Source: Candidatus Shapirobacteria bacterium (lineage in GTDB: Bacteria; Patescibacteriota; Microgenomatia; UBA12405). From it: 45,507 nucleotides of DNA. Where the stretch lies: positions 175,172-220,678 of the forward strand of contig JAQWEN010000001.1 of NCBI GenBank assembly GCA_028704885.1, given 5' to 3'. The position numbers and the translations under genes were made by a program. Under the pieces are notes generated by a model. That model did no database searches. It was given only the letters and a program-made list of their open reading frames with translations, and was not told where the DNA came from. Of this stretch, positions 515 to 35,966 are shown one piece after another (the stretch's first letter is position 1; each line of letters opens with the position of its first letter).

Positions 515-2911
515 ATGGAAAATTTCAAGGAAATAGAAAATAAATGGAAGAAATTTTGGGAAGATAATGCCGGATTGTATCAAGCCAAGAATGATAGTGA
601 TAAAAAAAAGAAATATATTCTAGTGGAATTTCCTTATCCAAGTGGTAGTGGTTTACATGTAGGTCATGCTTTTAGTTTTACTGGTGGAGATGTGTATGCT
701 CGGTTTAAAAGAATGCAGGGAGAAAATGTGATGTTTCCGATGGGATGGGATGCTTTTGGATTGCCAACTGAAAACTATGCGATTAAGATGAAAAAAAAAC
801 CACAGCAAGTAACTAAGGAAAACACTGATATGTTTAGAAAACAAATGAAGGATTTGGCTTTTTCTTTTGATTGGAGTCGGGAAGTAAACACAACTGACCC
901 AAGTTACTATAAATGGACTCAATGGATTTTTATTCAATTATTTAATAAGGGTCTGGCTTATAAAAAAGAAATGCCAATTAATTGGTGTCCATCCTGCAAA
1001 ATTGGTTTGGCTAATGAAGAAGTGGTAGATGGAAAATGTGAGCGCTGCGGAGCGGAAGTGAGTCGAAGAAATATATCTCAATGGGTGGTTAAAATAACAG
1101 ACTATGCTGATAAATTAATTGAAGGTTTAAAGGAAACTAATTTTATAGATAAAGTTAAACAAGCACAGATTAATTGGATTGGAAAATCAGAAGGGGCGAA
1201 GATTAAATTTAAGATCTCAGATGTCAGTTCTCAGATTTCAGATCTGGAAGTGTTTACGACTAGACCAGATACATTGCCGGGAGTGACTTTTATGGTAGTA
1301 GCTCCAGAGCATCAATTAGTTGATCAGATTATCAGTTCGTCAGTTTTTCAGAAAGAAGAAATAGAAAATTATGTCAAAAATGCGAGAAAAAAGAGTGAGT
1401 TAGAAAGAACGGAACTTTCCAAAGATAAAACTGGAGTGTTCTCAGGATTATATGCCATCAATCCGGTTAACAATAAAGAAATCCCAATTTGGATAAGTGA
1501 TTTTGTCTTAGCCAGTTATGGAACTGGAGCAATTATGGCAGTGCCAGCTCATGATGAAAGAGACCATGCTTTTGCTAAAAAATTTGGGTTAACAATTGTG
1601 CCAGTGCTCAATAAGGAAGGTTGGGATTTTGAAAAAAAAGCTTTTACAGAAGTAGAAAAAGGGGAAGAATTTAATAAAATGTTAAATTGGGTTGAAGAAA
1701 AAGGTATTGGAGAGAGAACATCTTCGTATCATTTAAGAGATTGGATATTTTCAAGACAACATTATTGGGGTGAACCAATTCCAATGGTTAATTGTCCTAA
1801 ATGTGGCATGATTCCAGTCAAAGAAAGTGATTTACCAATTGTATTACCAGAAGTGGAGGCTTATGAACCAACTGATGACGGTCAAAGTCCTTTGTCGCAG
1901 ATGACTGATTGGGTTAACACGACTTGTCCAAAATGCGGCGGAGAAGCTAAGAGAGAAACTGATACGATGCCAAATTGGGCAGGTAGTGATTGGTACTTTT
2001 TGAGATATATTGATCCACATAATGATACAGTATTAGCTAGTCAAGAGTTAATGAAATACTGGAGTCCGGTTGACGTTTATATTGGTGGAGACGAGCATAA
2101 TGTGCTGCATTTGTTATATTCTCGATTTATTTATAAGTTTTTGTGGGATTTAGGTGTAGTACCAAAGGAATATCCAGAACCATATATTAAAAGATTGTCA
2201 CATGGAGTAATTTTGGGTCCTGATAATCAAAGAATGAGTAAATCGAAGGGTAATGTGATTGTGCCTGAGACAGTGGCGGATATTTATGGGGTTGATGTGG
2301 TGAGAATGTATTTAATGTTTATGGGGCCTTTTGATTCAACCATGGCTTGGAACGAAAAAACATTAATGGGAGTTAAAAGATATTTAGATAGGTTGGAAAA
2401 GTTTATAAATTCTCAGAAAGAGAATAATCTTGCTAGCAGTAAAGAAGTTAAAATGATAATAAATAAGCTAATTAATGGAGTTACCGAAGATTTAGAAGCT
2501 TTTAGATATAACACGGCTATTGCTAAAATGATGGAAGCGTTAAATAGCCTATCAGTTGGGCAGTCTATTAGTTTGTCAGATATTAAGACCTTAATAAAAT
2601 TACTGGCGCCATTTGCTCCATATATGGCTGAGGAATTATATAGTTTCTTTGAAAAGACATCGGTTCATGCGGCTTTATGGCCAGTGGCTGATCCAAAATT
2701 CCTAATAGGGGATGAAACTACTGTAATGGTATCGATTAATGGCAAGGTGAGAGATAAATTAATAATTAAGAATGAAGAATTAATAAATAAAGAAGAAATT
2801 TTAAGAAAAGCTAAAGGATTAGATAATATTAAAAAATGGATAGGTACGGGTGAGATAGTTAAAGAGGTATATGTACCAGGTAAAATGGTTAATTTGGTGA
2901 TAAAGTTATAG
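515..2911 (+). CDS. leuS: Leucine--tRNA ligase
   Basis: HIGH-like HVGH, KMSKS-like RMSKS, PMGWDAFGLPTEN and TTRPDT motifs, Zn-knuckle cysteines. Confidence 0.98.
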   Translation: MENFKEIENKWKKFWEDNAGLYQAKNDSDKKKKYILVEFPYPSGSGLHVGHAFSFTGGDVYARFKRMQGENVMFPMGWDAFGLPTENYAIKMKKKPQQVTKENTDMFRKQMKDLAFSFDWSREVNTTDPSYYKWTQWIFIQLFNKGLAYKKEMPINWCPSCKIGLANEEVVDGKCERCGAEVSRRNISQWVVKITDYADKLIEGLKETNFIDKVKQAQINWIGKSEGAKIKFKISDVSSQISDLEVFTTRPDTLPGVTFMVVAPEHQLVDQIISSSVFQKEEIENYVKNARKKSELERTELSKDKTGVFSGLYAINPVNNKEIPIWISDFVLASYGTGAIMAVPAHDERDHAFAKKFGLTIVPVLNKEGWDFEKKAFTEVEKGEEFNKMLNWVEEKGIGERTSSYHLRDWIFSRQHYWGEPIPMVNCPKCGMIPVKESDLPIVLPEVEAYEPTDDGQSPLSQMTDWVNTTCPKCGGEAKRETDTMPNWAGSDWYFLRYIDPHNDTVLASQELMKYWSPVDVYIGGDEHNVLHLLYSRFIYKFLWDLGVVPKEYPEPYIKRLSHGVILGPDNQRMSKSKGNVIVPETVADIYGVDVVRMYLMFMGPFDSTMAWNEKTLMGVKRYLDRLEKFINSQKENNLASSKEVKMIINKLINGVTEDLEAFRYNTAIAKMMEALNSLSVGQSISLSDIKTLIKLLAPFAPYMAEELYSFFEKTSVHAALWPVADPKFLIGDETTVMVSINGKVRDKLIIKNEELINKEEILRKAKGLDNIKKWIGTGEIVKEVYVPGKMVNLVIKL
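1212..1246 (+). repeat. Five heptamer units inside leuS
   Basis: AGATCTC AGATGTC AGTTCTC AGATTTC AGATCTG. The same core recurs at 8505 and 40714. Confidence 0.85.
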
Positions 2912-3020
2912 TTAAAGATATAGTTTAGTAAGTTTACTCAATATAATAGAGCAAAATATATCAAGCAGAAAGTAAAATTGACTGCTAATCAATATAAAAT
3001 TGGTTAAAAGATGGGAATAT

Positions 3021-4250
3021 ATGAATAAAATGAAAAGCTTTAAATTAAATAATGGAATCAGAGGGATAATCGTTCCAATGCCGGGTTTAAAGTCGGTAAC
3101 TATCGAGGTATTTTTAAAAATTGGTTCTAAATATGAAAATAAGGGTGAATTTGGTTTAAGTCACTTTTTGGAACACATGGCTTTCAAAGGAACAGAGAAA
3201 AGACCAACAGCTACAGATATAAATAGAGAAATTGACAGCAAAGGAGCCGGTTACAATGCTGGAACTGGGCACGAAATGACTTCTTATTATATAACTACGG
3301 TTAAAGAAAATGCTCCTTGGGCAATTGAATTAATTTCAGATATACTTTTCAATTCATTTTATGATGAAAAAGAGACGATAAAAGAGAGAGGAGTAATTAT
3401 GGAAGAAATCAAAATGTATCAAGATAATCCAATGATGGGATTAAGCGGTGAATTTACTAAGTTTTTATATGGGGGTTCTAAAATTGGCTGTTGGAATATA
3501 GCTGGCGAAGTGTCGGATATTAAAAATGTTGACCGAAAAACGATTGTTGATTATAGAAATAAATATATTAATCCAAAAGAAATAGTAGTGGTGGCTTGTG
3601 GAGACGTGGATAATGGGTTGGAAAAGGTAATTAGTGATAATTTTGGTGGTTTTTCTAAAGATGAATTAGGTTTACCTGAGGTGAAATTGGTTCTAAATAA
3701 AGAAAAGAACATGGTAATTAAAAAGGAATTGGAGCAAGGCCATTTTTGTATGGGTTTACCAGCTATAGGTTGGTCTGATAAACGAAAATATGCTTTAAAA
3801 TTATTAGATATAGCCTTGGATGGAAATAGTTCTTCTAGACTCTATACTAAAATTAGAGAGGAAAAAGCTTTGGCTTACTATGTGTCACCGGTGGGAGAGA
3901 TGTTTAAAGAGGGTGGTTATTGGGCAATTCAGTCGGGAGTGAATCTAGATAAGATAGAAGAGGCAATGGAAGTAGTAAGTAAAGAAATTGAAATCATAGC
4001 TAATTCCATTAAAGAAGATGAAATAAAGAGGGCTAAGGATTATCTTTTAGGTAAGATGAAGTTAGCAATGGACAAAACAGGCTTTGTTTCAGGATATGTG
4101 GGTCAGAAATTACTTTTGGAGAATAGTGAGGAGACATTAGAAGAGGAATTAAAAAAATATAGTGAAACTTCCTTAGAGGAAGTAAAGGATTTGGCCAAAG
4201 AGATATTTAAAAAGGAAGAAATTAGGACTTTAGTGTGTCATAACAGGTAA
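3021..4250 (+). CDS. M16 (pitrilysin/insulinase) family zinc peptidase
   Basis: HFLEHMAFKGT inverted zinc motif HxxEH, ERGVIMEEIKMY, SSRLYTKIREEKALAY. ATG at 3021 or 3030 is more likely than the TTG at 3000. Confidence 0.92.
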   Translation: MNKMKSFKLNNGIRGIIVPMPGLKSVTIEVFLKIGSKYENKGEFGLSHFLEHMAFKGTEKRPTATDINREIDSKGAGYNAGTGHEMTSYYITTVKENAPWAIELISDILFNSFYDEKETIKERGVIMEEIKMYQDNPMMGLSGEFTKFLYGGSKIGCWNIAGEVSDIKNVDRKTIVDYRNKYINPKEIVVVACGDVDNGLEKVISDNFGGFSKDELGLPEVKLVLNKEKNMVIKKELEQGHFCMGLPAIGWSDKRKYALKLLDIALDGNSSSRLYTKIREEKALAYYVSPVGEMFKEGGYWAIQSGVNLDKIEEAMEVVSKEIEIIANSIKEDEIKRAKDYLLGKMKLAMDKTGFVSGYVGQKLLLENSEETLEEELKKYSETSLEEVKDLAKEIFKKEEIRTLVCHNR

Positions 4251-4708: not shown

Positions 4709-4780
4709 TATCCCCACCAAGAATTGAACTTGGATTTACCACTTAGGAGGTGGTCGTTCTATCCGTTGAACTATGAGGAC
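4709..4780 (-). tRNA. tRNA-Arg (anticodon CCT)
   Basis: Reverse complement GTCCTCATAGTTCAACGGATAGAACGACCACCTCCTAAGTGGTAAATCCAAGTTCAATTCTTGGTGGGGATA folds as a cloverleaf; anticodon arm ACCAC-CTCCTAA-GTGGT; CCA not encoded. Confidence 0.93.
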
Positions 4781-4833: not shown

Positions 4834-4907
4834 TCGGGGATACTGGATTCGAACCAGCAACCTCAGCGTCCCGAACGCTGCACGCTAGCCAATTGCGCCA
4901 ATCCCCG
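4834..4907 (-). tRNA. tRNA-Pro (anticodon CGG)
   Basis: Reverse complement CGGGGATTGGCGCAATTGGCTAGCGTGCAGCGTTCGGGACGCTGAGGTTGCTGGTTCGAATCCAGTATCCCCGA; anticodon arm CAGCG-TTCGGGA-CGCTG; GGTTCGAATCC T-arm. Confidence 0.95.
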
Positions 4908-19473: not shown

Positions 19474-19479
19474 TATTTA

Positions 19480-19577
19480 ACAAAAAAAAGGCCTCGTCGA
19501 AGCGAGGCGCAAATAAAACAAAGTGAATTGTTTTGCCTCGGCGGGATTTATTTTTTATACCTGCTGTCTTCGGTTGA
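19480..19577 (-). promoter_or_regulatory. Ribosomal protein L10 leader with attenuator hairpin
   Basis: CCGAAGACAGCAGG...CCCGCCGAGG signature upstream of rplJ, then GCCTCG-CTTCGA-CGAGGC plus a T run; promoter TTTACA-17 bp-TATAAT at 19613-19585. Confidence 0.85.
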
Positions 19578-19689
19578 TGGGGGAATTATAAAGGATAAAT
19601 AGAAAAATGTAAATGCAGAGAATGAAAATGGCCTAAGGTTTATTGTTGTTGGTTCTTTACAAAAACAAAGCATTTTGTCAAAAATAGGC

Positions 19690-31139: not shown

Positions 31140-31194
31140 TTGACTCACTCTAGTGGTAGTAGGTATGATGGATGTCATCCACTAGAGATAGTGT
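31140..31194 (+). promoter_or_regulatory. nrdR-nrdJ promoter with two NrdR-box-like sites
   Basis: TTGACT(31140)-18 bp-TATGAT(31164); CCACTAGAGATAGTGT at 31179-31194 and ACTCTAGTGGTAGTAG at 31147-31162, 32 bp apart. Confidence 0.75.
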
Positions 31195-31222
31195 TTTATC
31201 AATTATAATAAATCTAACAAAA

Positions 31223-31672
31223 ATGTTGTGCCCATATTGTGGTTTTGATGAATCCAATGTCTTAGAAAGCAGAGAGGCAGAGGAAGGAAAGGTAACTAGA
31301 AGACGAAGAGAATGTTTAAAGTGCAAAAAAAGATTTACAACCTATGAAAGAGTGGGCAGTATTGATTTAAAAGTAATTAAAAAAAGTGGCAAAGTAGAAG
31401 ATTATTCCCGAGAAAAATTGGAAAAATGTATTGATAAAGCTTGTTGGAAGATGACTGGCGAAGAAAAAAGCGGCTTAATTGATGAAATTGAAATGAAATT
31501 GCTTAATTGGCCAAGTGTGGAAATTCCTTCAAAGGAAATAGGAATGATGATTTTGGAAAAATTGAAAAATATTGATCCGATGGCATATATTCGTTTTGCC
31601 ACGGTTTATTTAGATATAAATGAAGTTAATGATTTTGAAAAACTTATTAGTAATTTTAAAAATAAAAAATGA
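31223..31672 (+). CDS. nrdR: Transcriptional repressor NrdR
   Basis: MLCPYCG, VLESR, RRRRECLKCKKRFTTYER, ATP-cone, AYIRFATVY. True start 31223, not 31172. Confidence 0.96.
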   Translation: MLCPYCGFDESNVLESREAEEGKVTRRRRECLKCKKRFTTYERVGSIDLKVIKKSGKVEDYSREKLEKCIDKACWKMTGEEKSGLIDEIEMKLLNWPSVEIPSKEIGMMILEKLKNIDPMAYIRFATVYLDINEVNDFEKLISNFKNKK

Positions 31673-34137
31673 CAGATCTAAGCAGACAAAATATAAATGA
31701 GAGTGAATTGTTAGAACCAAGTCTTTCGACTAACGCTAAATATATTGCGGAAACCAGATATTCAAGAAAGGATGAAGACGGCAAATCTCTAGAAACAGTT
31801 AAAGATATTTTTTGGAGGGTGGCTAGTAATGTGGCTAAGGGTGATAAAAATTTTGGAGCTAATGATCAACAAATTAATGATCAGGCAAAATCTTTTTATC
31901 AATTATTTGCAGAACAGAAATTTTTACCAAATACTCCTTGTTTGGTGAATGCCGGAAAAGCTAAACAACAATTGTCAGCCTGTTTTGTGTTGCCAATTGA
32001 TGATTCGATGGAATCAATTTTGGAAACCATGACCAATATGGCTTTGATTCATAAAAGCGGTGGAGGAACCGGTTTTTCTTTTTCCAGACTTCGACCCAGC
32101 GGTGACTATATTAAATCGAGTGGTGGCACAACTGTTGGTCCGGTTAGTTTTATGCAGGCCTATAACGATGTAACGGCTCAAATTAAACAGGGTGGAGTCC
32201 GACGCGGAGCTAATATGGGGATGTTGTCAATTGATCATCCAGATGTTTTGAGATTTGCAGTGGCTAAATTGGACGAGTGGAGTCTGACTAACTTCAATAT
32301 TTCTTTGGCAGTGACGAATGCTTTTATGGAAAAGATAGAAGCTGATAAGAAGTTTGTGGCTGATGATTCAATTCCAGAAGAAGCAGTCGAGGAAGTTAGA
32401 ATGGCAGAACAAATTAGAAGTGCTGATGAAAGATTAAGAGAAGTAGAAATGGGAGTTAAAAAGATATATGAATGGGCCAAAGCAACTCAGATCGGCGAAG
32501 GTTATGATTTGATAAATCCAAGAACGGGAACTGCGTCAATGAAATTGAATGCTTATAAAGTGTTTAATTTAATTACTAGATTAGCTTGGCAATTTGGAGA
32601 TCCAGGTTTAGTTTTTATCGACAGAATGAATGATTCAAGTTCTAATCCAATTCCTAGTATCGGGAGAATTGAAGCAACTAATCCTTGTGGAGAACAACCA
32701 CTTTTGCCTTATGATGCCTGTAATTTAGGAAGTGTGAATTTAAGTAAATTTGTAGAAGGGAATGATATTAATTGGAATGAATTAAAAGAAACAATAAAAA
32801 TTGGAGTTCATTTTCTGGATAATGTAGTGGAAATTAATGAATTTCCGGTTCAAAAAATTAGAGATATGGTAACTAGCACTAGAAGAATTGGAGTGGGAGT
32901 GATGGGTTTTGCTGATGCTTTGTTTAAATTGGGAGTGAAATATGATTCGGAAGATGGAATTGCCTGGGCGGAGAAAATAATGAAATTTGTAACTGAATCG
33001 GCCAGAGAAGCAACTTCTGAATTAGGAGTAACTCGGGGAGCTTTTCCGTTATGGGACAAAAGTGTCTATTTTAATACTGGTTACAAACCAAGAAATATGG
33101 CTTTGACGACGATTGCTCCAACTGGAACGATCAGTATGCTGGCCGACACAAGTTCAGGAATTGAACCAGTGTTTTCTTTGGGTTATCAAAAAAACACAGT
33201 TGAAGGAAAAACGCTTTACAGTGTCAGTCCAGTTTTGGTTGAAGAATTAAAGAAGAGAAATATATACAGTGAAGAATTAATTGAAAAAATTGTTAAAAAT
33301 GGAGGAATTTTAAAAGGAATTGAGGAAGTTCCAGAGGATTTAAAGTCGCTTTTCATTACGGCTTTGGAAATTGATCCAGAATGGCATATCAGAATTCAGG
33401 CAGCTTTCCAAAAATATACTGATAATGCAGTATCAAAAACTATTAACTTGCCAGAGGATGCAACGGTTGATGATGTTAGAAAAGCTTATTTAAAATCTTA
33501 TTCCTTGGGAACTAAAGGGATTACTATTTATAGAAGCGGGTCTCGATCTTTTGAACCAATGCAAAAGGTTAAAACTAAGGAAGAAAAAGTTGAGGAAAAA
33601 GTAGTGGTTTTGCCACCAAAGAAAAAAGTAACACCAATAATGGCCAGGGGGGTGAGGCTGAAGAAAAAATGTGATTTGGGCAATGTTTATACTTCAATTT
33701 TTTACGAGGCTGGAGATGGCCCTGTGGAAGTCTTTGTAAATTTGGGTAAAAGCGGTGGTTTTATGTCGGGAGCAGCTGAAGCAACCGGTAGATTAGCATC
33801 TTTGGCATTGAAATATGGAGCCAGTTTGGGTGAAATTGCTGATGAAATGGTGGGTATAGCTTGTGGTCAAAAAGTTGGTTTGGGACCGGGAACTGTTTTA
33901 AGTATGTTTGATGCCGTGGGTAAATCACTTTTGGAAGTTTCTCGAGGTGAACAACTAGATATATTTGCTTGTGAAAAAGACACTATTGATACCAAGGCGA
34001 TTGAAAGTATTAGAGTAAAACAGGCTGACTTGGAAAGTAAAGCAATTTCTTGTCCTGACTGTGGTTCACCATTACGGGCTGAAGAAGGCTGTTTTAAATG
34101 TACTAATGAATTTTGTGGTTATAGTAAATGTTCATAA
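31669..34137 (+). CDS. nrdJ: Class II (adenosylcobalamin-dependent) ribonucleotide reductase with C-terminal zinc ribbon
   Basis: FLPNTPCLVNAG, LSACFV, GGGTG, QGGVRRGANMG, TNPCGEQ, RRIGVGVMG, TIAPTGTIS, KGITIYRSGSR, C-terminal CPDC...CFKC...C. No small-subunit gene nearby. Confidence 0.92.
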   Translation: MTDLSRQNINESELLEPSLSTNAKYIAETRYSRKDEDGKSLETVKDIFWRVASNVAKGDKNFGANDQQINDQAKSFYQLFAEQKFLPNTPCLVNAGKAKQQLSACFVLPIDDSMESILETMTNMALIHKSGGGTGFSFSRLRPSGDYIKSSGGTTVGPVSFMQAYNDVTAQIKQGGVRRGANMGMLSIDHPDVLRFAVAKLDEWSLTNFNISLAVTNAFMEKIEADKKFVADDSIPEEAVEEVRMAEQIRSADERLREVEMGVKKIYEWAKATQIGEGYDLINPRTGTASMKLNAYKVFNLITRLAWQFGDPGLVFIDRMNDSSSNPIPSIGRIEATNPCGEQPLLPYDACNLGSVNLSKFVEGNDINWNELKETIKIGVHFLDNVVEINEFPVQKIRDMVTSTRRIGVGVMGFADALFKLGVKYDSEDGIAWAEKIMKFVTESAREATSELGVTRGAFPLWDKSVYFNTGYKPRNMALTTIAPTGTISMLADTSSGIEPVFSLGYQKNTVEGKTLYSVSPVLVEELKKRNIYSEELIEKIVKNGGILKGIEEVPEDLKSLFITALEIDPEWHIRIQAAFQKYTDNAVSKTINLPEDATVDDVRKAYLKSYSLGTKGITIYRSGSRSFEPMQKVKTKEEKVEEKVVVLPPKKKVTPIMARGVRLKKKCDLGNVYTSIFYEAGDGPVEVFVNLGKSGGFMSGAAEATGRLASLALKYGASLGEIADEMVGIACGQKVGLGPGTVLSMFDAVGKSLLEVSRGEQLDIFACEKDTIDTKAIESIRVKQADLESKAISCPDCGSPLRAEEGCFKCTNEFCGYSKCS

Positions 34138-34143
34138 ATAAAT

Positions 34144-34641
34144 ATGAGTGAAAGAGGAGACAAAGGATTAACTTGTGGAGAATGTTTACTGGATGTAAGT
34201 AAAGATTCTCCATTTGTGAAGTCAGTGGGAGGAATTGATGAATTTCAAGCCAGATTAGGCTCAGTAAGAGTAGTTTTGGAAGATAAAAAAGAAAAACAAA
34301 GGATTAAAAAAATTGAAGAGGATTTAGTTGAAGTGATGGGTAGCTTATACACTGGTAATGATTGGAAAAATGGAAACAAAAGGATAGGAGAATTGGATGA
34401 AGATATAGTCGCTTATCAAGGAAGAGTTGGAGATTTGAATGGATTTTTAATTCCAGGAGAAAATGAAATTGAAGTGAGGCTTAATTTATGTAGAACGGCT
34501 TGTAGAGAGGCAGAAACAAGATTGGTGACTTTAAAATTGGCTAGAGAAGTAGAAGAGGATTTGGATTTTGATGAAAATATATTGAAATATTTCAATAGAA
34601 CTTCCAAATTTTTATATTTTATGTGGAGGTCAAAATTTTAG
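34144..34641 (+). CDS. PduO-type ATP:cob(I)alamin adenosyltransferase-like protein (divergent)
   Basis: GDKGLT...SKDSP...GGIDEFQARLG, LCRTACREAETRLV, KYFNRTSKFLY; adjacent to nrdJ. Confidence 0.78.
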   Translation: MSERGDKGLTCGECLLDVSKDSPFVKSVGGIDEFQARLGSVRVVLEDKKEKQRIKKIEEDLVEVMGSLYTGNDWKNGNKRIGELDEDIVAYQGRVGDLNGFLIPGENEIEVRLNLCRTACREAETRLVTLKLAREVEEDLDFDENILKYFNRTSKFLYFMWRSKF

Positions 34642-34649
34642 TGATAGAA

Positions 34650-34756
34650 TAAGTTATTAAAGGGGAACCAGGTTAGAATCCTGGGCTGTGCCGCAACCGT
34701 AAAGCCGGATAACCAAAACCCACCACAGGCGGGTTAACTTTCGAGCAAGAGTAAAT
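34650..34756 (+). ncRNA. Compact (class II-like) cobalamin riboswitch
   Basis: GTTAT/ATAAC closing stem; GGGAA; CCAGG-TTAGAAT-CCTGG T-loop hairpin; GCTG-TGCCG-CAAC; AAGCCGG. Hairpin ACTTT-CGAGCA-AGAGT (34737-34752) lies just before the ATG, and its loop can pair with TGCCG. Confidence 0.82.
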
Positions 34757-35698
34757 ATGAATCAAGAAAGAATAAAACAAGTTGGTTTTTCAGCAGAAAA
34801 AGAAGAGATCTTCTTAAGAAGATTGGATAATCGAAATAGAAGAGTTAACTTGGAACAAGAATTAAAAACTCAATTGGCCGAAGATTTTGGTTTGGTGGAA
34901 TTTACATTGAAATATAAGATTAATTCCGATGGGAAGATTGTAGATATAATTTCGGGTCAGGAAATAGTGGAATTGACTAGTCGGGGAGGGATTAAAGAAG
35001 AAACTGAATCAATTGGAAAAATAGAAGAAGGTTTAAAAAATAATCCAGAAAAAACTTTTATTCATTTTAGTCCTAAAAATGAAAATTTAGGTTATCCAAA
35101 CAATTGTGTCGATTTTTGGCGAGTAGTTGACGATGAAGTAGTTTGGAATCGAATGGTGGTGAAAAATAACTTTGAAGAAATGAATAAAACAAGACAGGTT
35201 TTATCAGGGGAAGAAAAAGTTGAAAATGAGATGGAAATTTTGAAATCACCAATTGGAGTTGAATTAAAATTGGCGGAAGTTTTTGATTTTTTTAGATTAA
35301 GTGAAGAAAAAAACATAACTGATTTAAATAAAATTGAGGCAGTGGTGGAAAAATATCTAGAGCAATTTGAGAATGAATTTGGAGAAAAATTAACTGAAGA
35401 TCAAGAATTGATTTTTAGATTGTATTCAATCTGCCATGAGGCCTCAAAAAGAGAGAGTGAACAGAGAATAATGAAAAGATCTGAATTGGAAATTTATATG
35501 TATGGAATAATGAAGGAAATAAAAGTGGAAAAGAGCTCTGGATGTGCAGCAACAACAACAGTGGGGTCTTTTGGAGAAAAGATTGGCTATTATGTTCTAT
35601 CTAATGGTGAAGTTAAGAAGGGAGTGGTTCCTGAAGGATTTAAAGAATGCAAAAAATGTGGTTGTTGGTATCAAGGTGAAAAATGTCCTTTTTGTTAA
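34757..35698 (+). CDS. Hypothetical protein with C-terminal zinc-ribbon-like Cys cluster
   Basis: 313-aa acidic ORF ending SSGC...CKKCGCWYQGEKCPFC. Confidence 0.8.
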   Translation: MNQERIKQVGFSAEKEEIFLRRLDNRNRRVNLEQELKTQLAEDFGLVEFTLKYKINSDGKIVDIISGQEIVELTSRGGIKEETESIGKIEEGLKNNPEKTFIHFSPKNENLGYPNNCVDFWRVVDDEVVWNRMVVKNNFEEMNKTRQVLSGEEKVENEMEILKSPIGVELKLAEVFDFFRLSEEKNITDLNKIEAVVEKYLEQFENEFGEKLTEDQELIFRLYSICHEASKRESEQRIMKRSELEIYMYGIMKEIKVEKSSGCAATTTVGSFGEKIGYYVLSNGEVKKGVVPEGFKECKKCGCWYQGEKCPFC

Positions 35699-35750
35699 TT
35701 GATAGTTTTTGATCTATAAGATGATATATTTGGATATATACATATAAAAT

Positions 35751-35966
35751 ATGGAAAAAATTAGATTTTCTTTTGATAATCTAAAAAATAAAGAATCAAG
35801 AGAAGAATTATTAAAAAAAGGAGTGGTGTGGGGTTTGGCGGTGGGGTTTGGAATATTGCCGCCTTTTTCTGTTTGTTTGGTTGATGATTTAGCAATAAGA
35901 AGGGAAAACTTAACAGATAAAGTAAACAAAGTTTTTAAAAATAATAGACGAGTCAATTTGGATTAA
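35751..35966 (+). CDS. Small hypothetical protein
   Basis: 71-aa ORF between two co-oriented genes; its stop overlaps the next start; one hydrophobic stretch. Confidence 0.5.
   Translation: MEKIRFSFDNLKNKESREELLKKGVVWGLAVGFGILPPFSVCLVDDLAIRRENLTDKVNKVFKNNRRVNLD

Follow-up and report, generated by a model that had tools for sequence, protein, structure and literature searches.

A compact class-II cobalamin riboswitch inside a ribonucleotide reductase operon of Candidatus Shapirobacteria, and its target, a candidate for an undescribed B12-related function

The cobalamin riboswitches closest to the element described here are env8HyCbl and the other class-II RNAs, which correspond to Rfam family RF01689 (AdoCbl-II) in clan CL00101 (PMC5028336, PMC6158498). 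They have a four-way-junction core without the P6 peripheral extension, loops L4 and L6, a B12 box, and a kissing loop between L5 and L13 that is broken by one or more unpaired L13 nucleotides, with P13 placed at the translation start, and they repress translation. In these RNAs the L5–L13 helix always leaves one L13 nucleotide or more unpaired, and the interaction is thereby made ligand-dependent (PMC5028336); selectivity for adenosylcobalamin (AdoCbl) versus methylcobalamin or hydroxocobalamin is set by J1/3 and J6/3 and is not predictable from sequence (PMC6158498). We analyzed a stretch of 45,507 nucleotides (hereafter, the window) from a Candidatus Shapirobacteria genome (GCA_028704885.1, contig JAQWEN010000001.1, positions 175,172 to 220,678 of the forward strand), in which an RNA element with these features lies at 34653–34752 on the + strand. 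It separates the gene for a PduO-type cob(I)alamin adenosyltransferase from that for an orphan protein of 313 amino acids (hereafter, X313). The RNA is almost certainly a real riboswitch, and it adds a very compact and otherwise ordinary member to a known class. The overall reading that we hold with somewhat better than even confidence is that it functions as a minimal class-II cobalamin riboswitch within an nrdR-nrdJ-pduO-X313 transcript and that X313 most likely takes part in corrinoid handling.

The aptamer was located by covariance-model search (cmscan) where the original prediction had placed it, about 10 nt after the pduO stop codon. RF00174 (Cobalamin) matches 34610–34741 with 33.1 bits (cut-off 31.5), at an E-value of 8e-5 over the whole window and 7e-7 over a 401-nt stretch, and RF01689 matches 34653–34720 with 32.8 bits. 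The aptamer (P3, J3/4, P4/L4, P5/L5, P6 and J6/3; 34653–34720, + strand) has a core spanning about 34653 to 34716, of which the B12-box-like AGCCGGAUAACC is part. J3/4 is GGAA (34664–34667), and P4 is formed by CCAGG and CCUGG (34668–34672 with 34680–34684) around the T-loop-like L4 UUAGAAU. P5 (U34687–A34695 and G34688–C34694) closes L5 UGCCG (34689–34693), the aptamer half of the kissing loop. P6 is minimal, with three base pairs (CCG/CGG; 34697–34699 with 34706–34708) and a 6-nt loop. The 84 positions of the RF00174 peripheral region are replaced by 20 nt, leaving no P6 extension, as had been proposed.

Two hairpins follow on the same strand, both of them foreseen by the original prediction and both part of the minimum-free-energy (MFE) fold. 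The first is a linker hairpin in J1/13 (AACCC.../...GGGUU, 34717–34735, core CCCACC-ACA-GGCGGG at 34719–34733) with one A-C mismatch. The second is the P13 hairpin (ACUUU/AGAGU, 34737–34752), which presents L13 CGAGCA (34742–34747, with A34744 unpaired) and ends 4 nt before the AUG at 34757. Compared with env8HyCbl and its class, the window copy differs in having a structured 15-nt hairpin in J1/13, a weak closing P1 and a score below the RF01689 cut-off, and in its intra-operonic position close behind the pduO stop.

Two alternative pairings were considered and set aside. The P1/P2 that RF00174 places inside the coding end of pduO (34610–34650) was dropped: its pairs are mostly non-canonical, and in relatives the aptamer lies downstream of the stop codon. 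Also not adopted was a conserved P1 (AAAG/CUUU) in competition with P13; it is present in the window and in one other locus (L001) and missing from most sequences. Several pairs of the Rfam P1 assignments are non-canonical, and the 5' flank is AU-rich.

To the kissing loop, the proposed pairing of CGAGCA with UGCCG, the comparative data speak directly. Across 57 distinct riboswitch sequences, L5 UGCCG was combined with L13 CGAGCA in 43, L5 GGCCG with CG(A/C)GCC in five, L5 UACCG with CGAGUA in two, and L5 UGCCG with CG(C/U)GCA in five. One real case of UGCCG with CGAGCU has a terminal U-U mismatch; another match to that pattern lies within a P6 extension and was mis-called. Two separate L5–L13 positions therefore change on both sides together, giving two kinds of natural compensatory double change, and the third L13 base is unpaired and variable (A, C or U) with five L5–L13 pairs around it. 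The pairing thus stands with the A bulged, and it fits the rule that at least one L13 nucleotide stays unpaired: the window element has one bulged base, whereas env8HyCbl and its class have two purines and an A-G pair. RNAalifold, given no structure, returned P4, P6 and the L5–L13 pairing with its bulge.

The wider conservation of the RNA was assessed in 65 loci of X313 homologues, 18 from genomes and 47 from metagenomes. The L5 search motif C[UA]G[UG][GA]CCGC[AU]AC occurs exactly once, directly upstream of the gene, in 63 of them, and the two exceptions end at the gene start. RF01689 or RF00174 was called at cut-off in 11 of the 18 genome loci; the RF01689 cut-off itself was passed by eight of the 18 and by several family loci, at 38–52 bits, and orthologous loci range from 32 to 52 bits on one model or the other. 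Covariance model R1, for which we used 22 compact copies, recovered the element once per locus in 54 of the 59 sources searched and scored the window copy at 66.3 bits over 34641–34759. Homologues with upstream sequence always carry the element and adjoin nrdJ and pduO, so that the target gene is not one whose relatives lack the RNA or B12 enzymes.

In the alignment of these 22 copies the drawn structure paired 89.4% of cells against 80.4% in shuffles and outdid every slid control, and double-sided changes numbered 50 against 18.9 in shuffles, a value reached by none of 500 shuffles. P4 is paired in 95.5% of cells, with compensatory changes at three of its five pairs. P5 is paired in all cells (UA in 15 sequences, AU in seven), as is P6 (middle pair CG in 11, GC in 11), the kissing-loop pairs are kept at 99–100%, and P13 is paired in 88% of cells. 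The stems of P13 vary by lineage (CUUU/AAAG, CUUC/GAAG, CUUA/UAAG, CUUG/CAAG, UCC/GGA, UCU/AGA and CCGA/UCGG), and all five pairs show compensatory changes across families around the constant loop CGAGCA; this across-family set was pre-selected for a foldable stem, so the evidence is the diversity of pairs and not the percentage paired. The aptamer core, helices P4, P5, P6 and P13, and the L5–L13 kissing loop are conserved and covarying.

Peripheral elements are less constant. The P6 region is longer in L003, L006, L016, L029 and L037; some copies, in which P6 is extended by 30–70 nt and an additional hairpin lies on the 5' side, match RF00174 instead of RF01689. In L004 and L058 a hairpin is inserted in L4. 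Because orthologous copies differ in this way, the divide between class I and class II is fluid within one gene family. The linker hairpin is likewise optional and missing from most loci; L025, L055 and L057 have covarying linker hairpins (CCCAC(U)/(G)GUGGG in L025 and CCCGCC/GGCGGG in L057), and the hairpins that L076 and L077 carry at this site are unrelated. A minus-strand terminator scan flags the linker hairpin (34717–34735) as a stem with a T-rich tail; there is no converging gene, and the match looks incidental.

By analogy with env8HyCbl, we predict that the element very probably works as a translational OFF switch through the L5–L13 kissing loop. Bound corrinoid would bridge L5 (UGCCG) and L13 (CG[A]GCA), and this bridging would lock the P13 hairpin 4 nt before the AUG, so that the 30S subunit could not load; X313 alone would be turned off, with the upstream nrdJ and pduO staying on. 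The P13 hairpin by itself is worth only -1.5 kcal/mol, a marginal stability that suits a switch, and the linker hairpin by itself -8.5 kcal/mol. Long J1/13 linkers slow docking (PMC5028336), and a hairpin holding the ends of a long J1/13 together is for that reason a sensible accommodation, as we infer it.

Several features of the RNA weigh against this reading. The 32.8 bits of the window copy fall short of the curated RF01689 cut-off of 36.5, a shortfall that coincides with its L4 variant UUAGAAU and its weak P1. The P1/P3 closing helix is poorly supported in the alignment (58% of cells paired). The MFE of the leader is no better than that of shuffles (z -0.28), which is uninformative because the structure of this RNA is tertiary. 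Finally, occlusion of the ribosome site rests on geometry and not on a sequestered Shine-Dalgarno (SD) sequence, because the genome shows no SD enrichment: GGAGG lies upstream of only 2.6% of 498 long open reading frames (ORFs). In this the window element differs from env8HyCbl and its class, its L13 and P13 having no recognizable SD in a genome that barely uses one. The 3' strand of P13 was considered as an SD and dropped; upstream regions in the genome favor TATAA over GGAGG, AAGAG and GAAAG are depleted, and the 3' end of the 16S rRNA was not found in the assembly. TATAA-type -10 boxes are enriched about 6-fold at -18 to -5 upstream of the 498 long ORFs (for example at window positions 31140–31169 before nrdR), which suggests that many mRNAs of this genome may be leaderless or very short-leadered.

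Marginal Rfam scores on both models and a weak P1 are also what would be seen if the RNA were a decayed or non-regulatory aptamer relic, and the joining of a terminator-like hairpin and U-run to the same aptamer in L094, L096, L098 and L108 would fit a mechanism other than translational repression, such as transcription termination, Rho or an ON switch. We consider either possibility very improbable, given a core that is invariant over the 57 distinct sequences with compensatory changes, a + strand that here has no terminator-like site, and a P13 stem that abuts the AUG at 0–5 nt in all compact members.

The placement of the riboswitch within the operon bears on what it can control. Gene order on the + strand is nrdR, nrdJ, pduO, riboswitch, X313, a 71-aa ORF, a SIMPL/DUF541 gene, thyX, tmk and prs. 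The first gene, nrdR (31172–31672; PF22811 and PF03477), encodes a repressor with a Zn-ribbon and an ATP-cone. It is followed by nrdJ (31669–34137; TIGR02504, 670 bits), which encodes an AdoCbl-dependent class II ribonucleotide reductase (RNR) with a Cys-rich C-terminal tail, by pduO (34144–34641, stop codon 34639–34641; PF01923, E 7e-29), and by the gene for X313 (34757–35698). The best promoter-like site of the region is at 31140–31169, just upstream of nrdR, and the + strand of the pduO-X313 interval has no promoter-like and no terminator-like site, which is weak evidence with scan counts at chance level. Their absence suggests that the riboswitch lies within the transcript of the operon and that X313 alone is uncoupled by it. 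The order nrdR-nrdJ-pduO-riboswitch-X was found in all 18 genome loci and in 9–10 divergent family members. In some relatives (L010, nrdJ 815–2413 and 2514–3125; G098 C3:9271–11850), the match to nrdJ is split in two by a gap or an extra segment, which could be an insertion, an intein-like element or an assembly break.

The assembly (779 kb, 92% complete) contains exactly one cobalamin riboswitch in a scan with RF00174 and RF01689. Neither NrdD nor NrdB was found, making NrdJ the sole RNR detected. Three tandem, paralogous B12-binding radical-SAM genes lie outside the window (G000 C1:437779–442352; 486–520 aa) and, together with NrdJ as the only RNR, make B12 look essential for this genome. 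A glycosyltransferase-like gene adjoins these three genes, which are further B12 consumers of a tiny genome. The uptake genes FecCD/BtuC permease, DUF6580 and DUF4430 are all missing, and no recognized B12 importer was found in the genome, ECF-CbrT and BtuM not having been searched for.

The regulated protein was described in the original prediction as ending in a four-Cys ribbon and having no recognizable family, and both parts held up. X313 has 90 homologues at 41–83% identity, which belong to Shapirobacteria or other members of the Candidate Phyla Radiation (CPR) and of which all that carry a source name come from Candidatus Shapirobacteria, and an exhaustive phmmer search over 1.8 billion cluster representatives returned only 47 relatives. 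Apart from sub-threshold zinc-ribbon matches, nothing was found in Pfam, NCBIfam or PHROGs or by profile search of the PDB. Two confident AlphaFold (AF2) models (pLDDT 85.4 and 89.2, pTM 0.77) place an N-terminal alpha/beta domain before a helical middle and a C-terminal beta-rich part that ends in the ribbon. The weak Foldseek matches that recur are to PYP, PAS and bacteriophytochrome structures (E 0.15–0.7, target-normalised TM 0.4–0.5) and are insignificant.

Residues E16, E42, C263, C298, C301 and C310 are invariant in the family, C313 is nearly so, and S105-P106, Y113, D119, W121, R132 and R221 are near-invariant. C263 (codon 35543–35545) lies in a Gly-rich loop, SxGC; it is invariant in type-A members (A1 and A3), and in the type-B subclade a His takes its place. 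The C-terminal Cys4 zinc-ribbon-like motif CKKCGCWYQGEKCPFC (35648–35695) comprises two CxxC knuckles, C298-x2-C301 and C310-x2-C313; the model has short strands there, and Pfam ribbon families reach only E 0.006–0.03. Some homologues are annotated with longer N termini. In P0002, P0085 and P0120 these 'extensions' (e.g., GEIPKLCRNGYSPNLEAFEQKY) are the riboswitch translated in frame, the public gene calls overrunning the RNA element. A real extension, which the window protein lacks, occurs in P0100, P0101, P0106, P0109, P0112, P0116, P0123, L076 and L078. Its conserved hydrophobic stretch of 14 residues (roughly LAxxLVxxGxVG) precedes a KLLxAP motif, and the extension may serve as a membrane anchor or docking peptide.

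The family extends further than sequence searches with X313 reveal. In family genomes that seemed to be without X313, the gene in its place, likewise preceded by the riboswitch, encodes a protein of 280–350 aa (type B) that has only the ribbon, a GxHG loop and a (W)xSP...Y.EGR motif in common with X313. A profile-profile comparison (hhalign) found types A and B homologous over 269 columns (probability 99.3%, E 9e-21). The hallmarks of the superfamily are a (W/H)xSP...Y motif, the Gly-rich loop with Cys (His in one subclade) and the Cys4 ribbon. The loop reads C-G-x-S-N in members from other families and H-G-x-S-N in type B. From this swap of Cys and His in identical context, which is typical of residues that bind a metal or cobalt, we infer a ligand and not a nucleophile of catalysis.

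R1 matched 224 of 401 sampled genomes of the class Microgenomatia, nearly always once per genome, and we surveyed the downstream gene at 17 riboswitch loci from other families. The commonest gene in that position was a superfamily member, at 10 loci at least (L097, L098, L101, L102, L104, L105, L106, L109, L113 and L108); in L108 (family f28) the order is riboswitch-pduO-X. One locus (L094) has nrdD-nrdG, one or two have DUF4430/DUF6580-like genes (L099, and L110 by a short motif match only), and four have larger proteins that could not be related to the superfamily. L095 (609 aa), L096, L107 (630 aa), L112 (778 aa) and a 648-aa ORF of L110 were considered as homologues and not counted (E > 0.1). 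None of the superfamily members found behind the riboswitch in other families has a Pfam family. The X313 superfamily is fast-evolving and spread over many families of the class.

Across the 401 class genomes, NrdJ was present in 196 and absent from 28 of those with the riboswitch, and present in 127 and absent from 50 of those without it (odds ratio 2.8, p 1e-4, not phylogenetically corrected). The pattern is sharper within the family, where 27 genomes could be scored: the 22 with X all have NrdJ and none has NrdD. Among the five without X, one has NrdJ and NrdD (G054), two have NrdD only (G172 and G198) and two have neither (G311 and G345), so that NrdD occurs in 0/22 X-positive and 3/5 X-negative genomes (Fisher p about 0.003, without phylogenetic correction). 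G054 is a sister species of the same genus without X313, and its single riboswitch precedes nrdD-nrdG (L094, G054 C9:36800–41500), with a terminator-like hairpin attached. The riboswitch precedes nrdD also in six further genomes of the genus of G054 and in no other genera. These counts and loci place X313 in genomes with NrdJ as the sole reductase and in a regulatory niche shared with a B12-independent reductase. The comparative data link X313 to the problem of having NrdJ as the only reductase, and they fit scavenging and a back-up for NrdJ, the two functions offered by the original prediction, alike. That X313 is functionally tied to B12 or to RNR supply is highly likely.

The shared niche invites the idea that X313 is itself a B12-independent back-up for the supply of deoxynucleotides, providing or salvaging them by another route when NrdJ is without cofactor. 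B12-independent isozymes are classic targets of B12 riboswitches, and control of nrdDG or nrdAB in nrdJ genomes follows the same logic that would apply to X313, production only when B12 is scarce, with the same aptamer in sister genomes. The occurrence of that aptamer before nrdD-nrdG and the mutual exclusion of X and NrdD are as this idea predicts. Unlike the riboswitch-controlled RNRs, however, X313 has 313 aa and is without an RNR domain, glycyl-radical motif or activase partner; no RNR barrel, glycyl-radical or ferritin-like domain was found in it or in 31 relatives, and no kinase, deoxyribosyltransferase or other nucleotide-enzyme signature in X313 (Pfam, NCBIfam, PDB). Its sole invariant Cys outside the ribbon can be His, which is atypical of a catalytic nucleophile, the f28 gene shares an operon with pduO behind the riboswitch, which points to salvage rather than bypass, and the exclusion would likewise arise if NrdDG simply made a B12 scavenger superfluous in the genomes that have it. 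A back-up role is accordingly unlikely in our judgment.

The strict gene order beside nrdJ-pduO across family f1 and the presence of NrdJ in every X-positive family genome are also compatible with X313 being an accessory specific to NrdJ or PduO, for example a cofactor-loading chaperone or a thiol or metal reductant for the Cys-rich tail of NrdJ, needed more when the cofactor is limiting; NrdJ and X313 both end in CxxC...CxxC ribbons. Yet the riboswitch occurs in the 28 class genomes lacking NrdJ, two such loci that were examined (L095 and L107) carrying large uncharacterized proteins. X313 has no P-loop or thioredoxin-like motif, and of a maintenance factor one would expect expression together with NrdJ and not anti-correlation with B12. 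We therefore view an accessory of this kind with considerable doubt.

The function that we propose for X313 is corrinoid capture or processing, specifically enough stated that we put it at slightly less than an even chance. X313 would be made under B12 scarcity, and only in genomes with the AdoCbl-dependent NrdJ as sole reductase; as a cytoplasmic protein it would capture or process corrinoids, feeding PduO and NrdJ, and would ligate cobalt via the invariant Cys (His in one subclade) on the Gly-rich loop, with the Cys4 metal module alongside. Corrinoid capture or processing is favored because X313 is constantly linked to pduO, with which it is co-transcribed downstream of the riboswitch in one family, because of the Cys/His loop and the Cys4 module, because an importer or processor is missing from the genome, and because a transcobalamin-like DUF4430 pair replaces X313 next to pduO in G054.

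DUF4430 is the C-terminal domain of transcobalamin and intrinsic factor (PMC4350170). In G054 its gene forms a pair with that of the DUF6580 membrane protein beside nrdJ-pduO (L069, G054 C6:35000–40100), taking the place that X313 has elsewhere, and the pair is itself a riboswitch target in another family (L099). It differs from X313 in being unrelated in sequence and membrane-bound or secreted, it occurs with X in a few genomes, and this genome has none of it. DUF6580 as a strict replacement for X313 was ruled out by their joint presence in G145, G211 and G250. With CblC/MMACHC, CblD and BtuM the analogy is hypothesized only, and would lie in corrinoid intake, a possible Cys/His ligand and hand-over to a PduO-type adenosyltransferase. 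BtuM reportedly ligates cobalt through a Cys. X313 differs from these proteins in being soluble, in having the Cys4 ribbon and in showing no likeness in sequence or fold to them.

The proposal of corrinoid handling is strained by the structural comparisons. Two runs of Foldseek against the PDB, which includes these proteins, gave no match below E 0.06, and X313 has no likeness to any corrinoid-binding fold; known corrinoid binders and processors (PF02310, CblC, BtuF and DUF4430) were likewise without resemblance to it in Pfam, the PDB profile search and Foldseek. X and DUF6580 occur together in 2–3 genomes, making X no simple replacement for that putative importer, and the exclusion of X and NrdD, a statistic that is not phylogenetically corrected, is predicted equally by the back-up hypothesis.

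Elsewhere in the window, Rfam matches only three further sites, all on the minus strand (4709–4780, 4834–4907 and 19474–19591); they correspond to two tRNA genes and, with 49.7 bits, to the leader of ribosomal protein L10. Downstream of X313, the gap to the SIMPL gene measures 268 nt (35699–35965) compared with only about 60–150 nt in relatives. It holds the 71-aa ORF (35751–35966), which has a hydrophobic middle and no tblastn match in the 18 loci; the region may represent inserted DNA or a small gene specific to this lineage.

In the literature searched, we found no paper describing this pairing of riboswitch and gene in CPR/Patescibacteria. The riboswitch matters as a pointer: the single B12 switch of a 0.78-Mb genome controls one protein of unrecognized fold, and its cargo is an uncharacterized, class-wide protein superfamily. 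As a common target of B12 switches in this class, X313 is a strong candidate for a B12-related function that has yet to be described. Transporters and salvage enzymes have been discovered time and again by way of riboswitch regulons, and the X313 family is for this reason a concrete entry point to how ultra-small, host-dependent bacteria acquire B12 or cope with its scarcity. Nature also offers a ready-made comparative experiment, a single genus in which this riboswitch precedes X313 in some genomes and nrdDG in others. We tentatively suggest, as a minority possibility, that the superfamily comprises unrecognized, Patescibacteria-specific cytoplasmic corrinoid handlers with a new fold, a Cys/His cobalt ligand and a Cys4 module, which may trap or process corrinoids (dealkylation, decyanation or reduction) and pass them to PduO. 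If true, such a new class of corrinoid handler would explain how AdoCbl is supplied to an essential reductase in cells without a known importer or a CblC-like protein.

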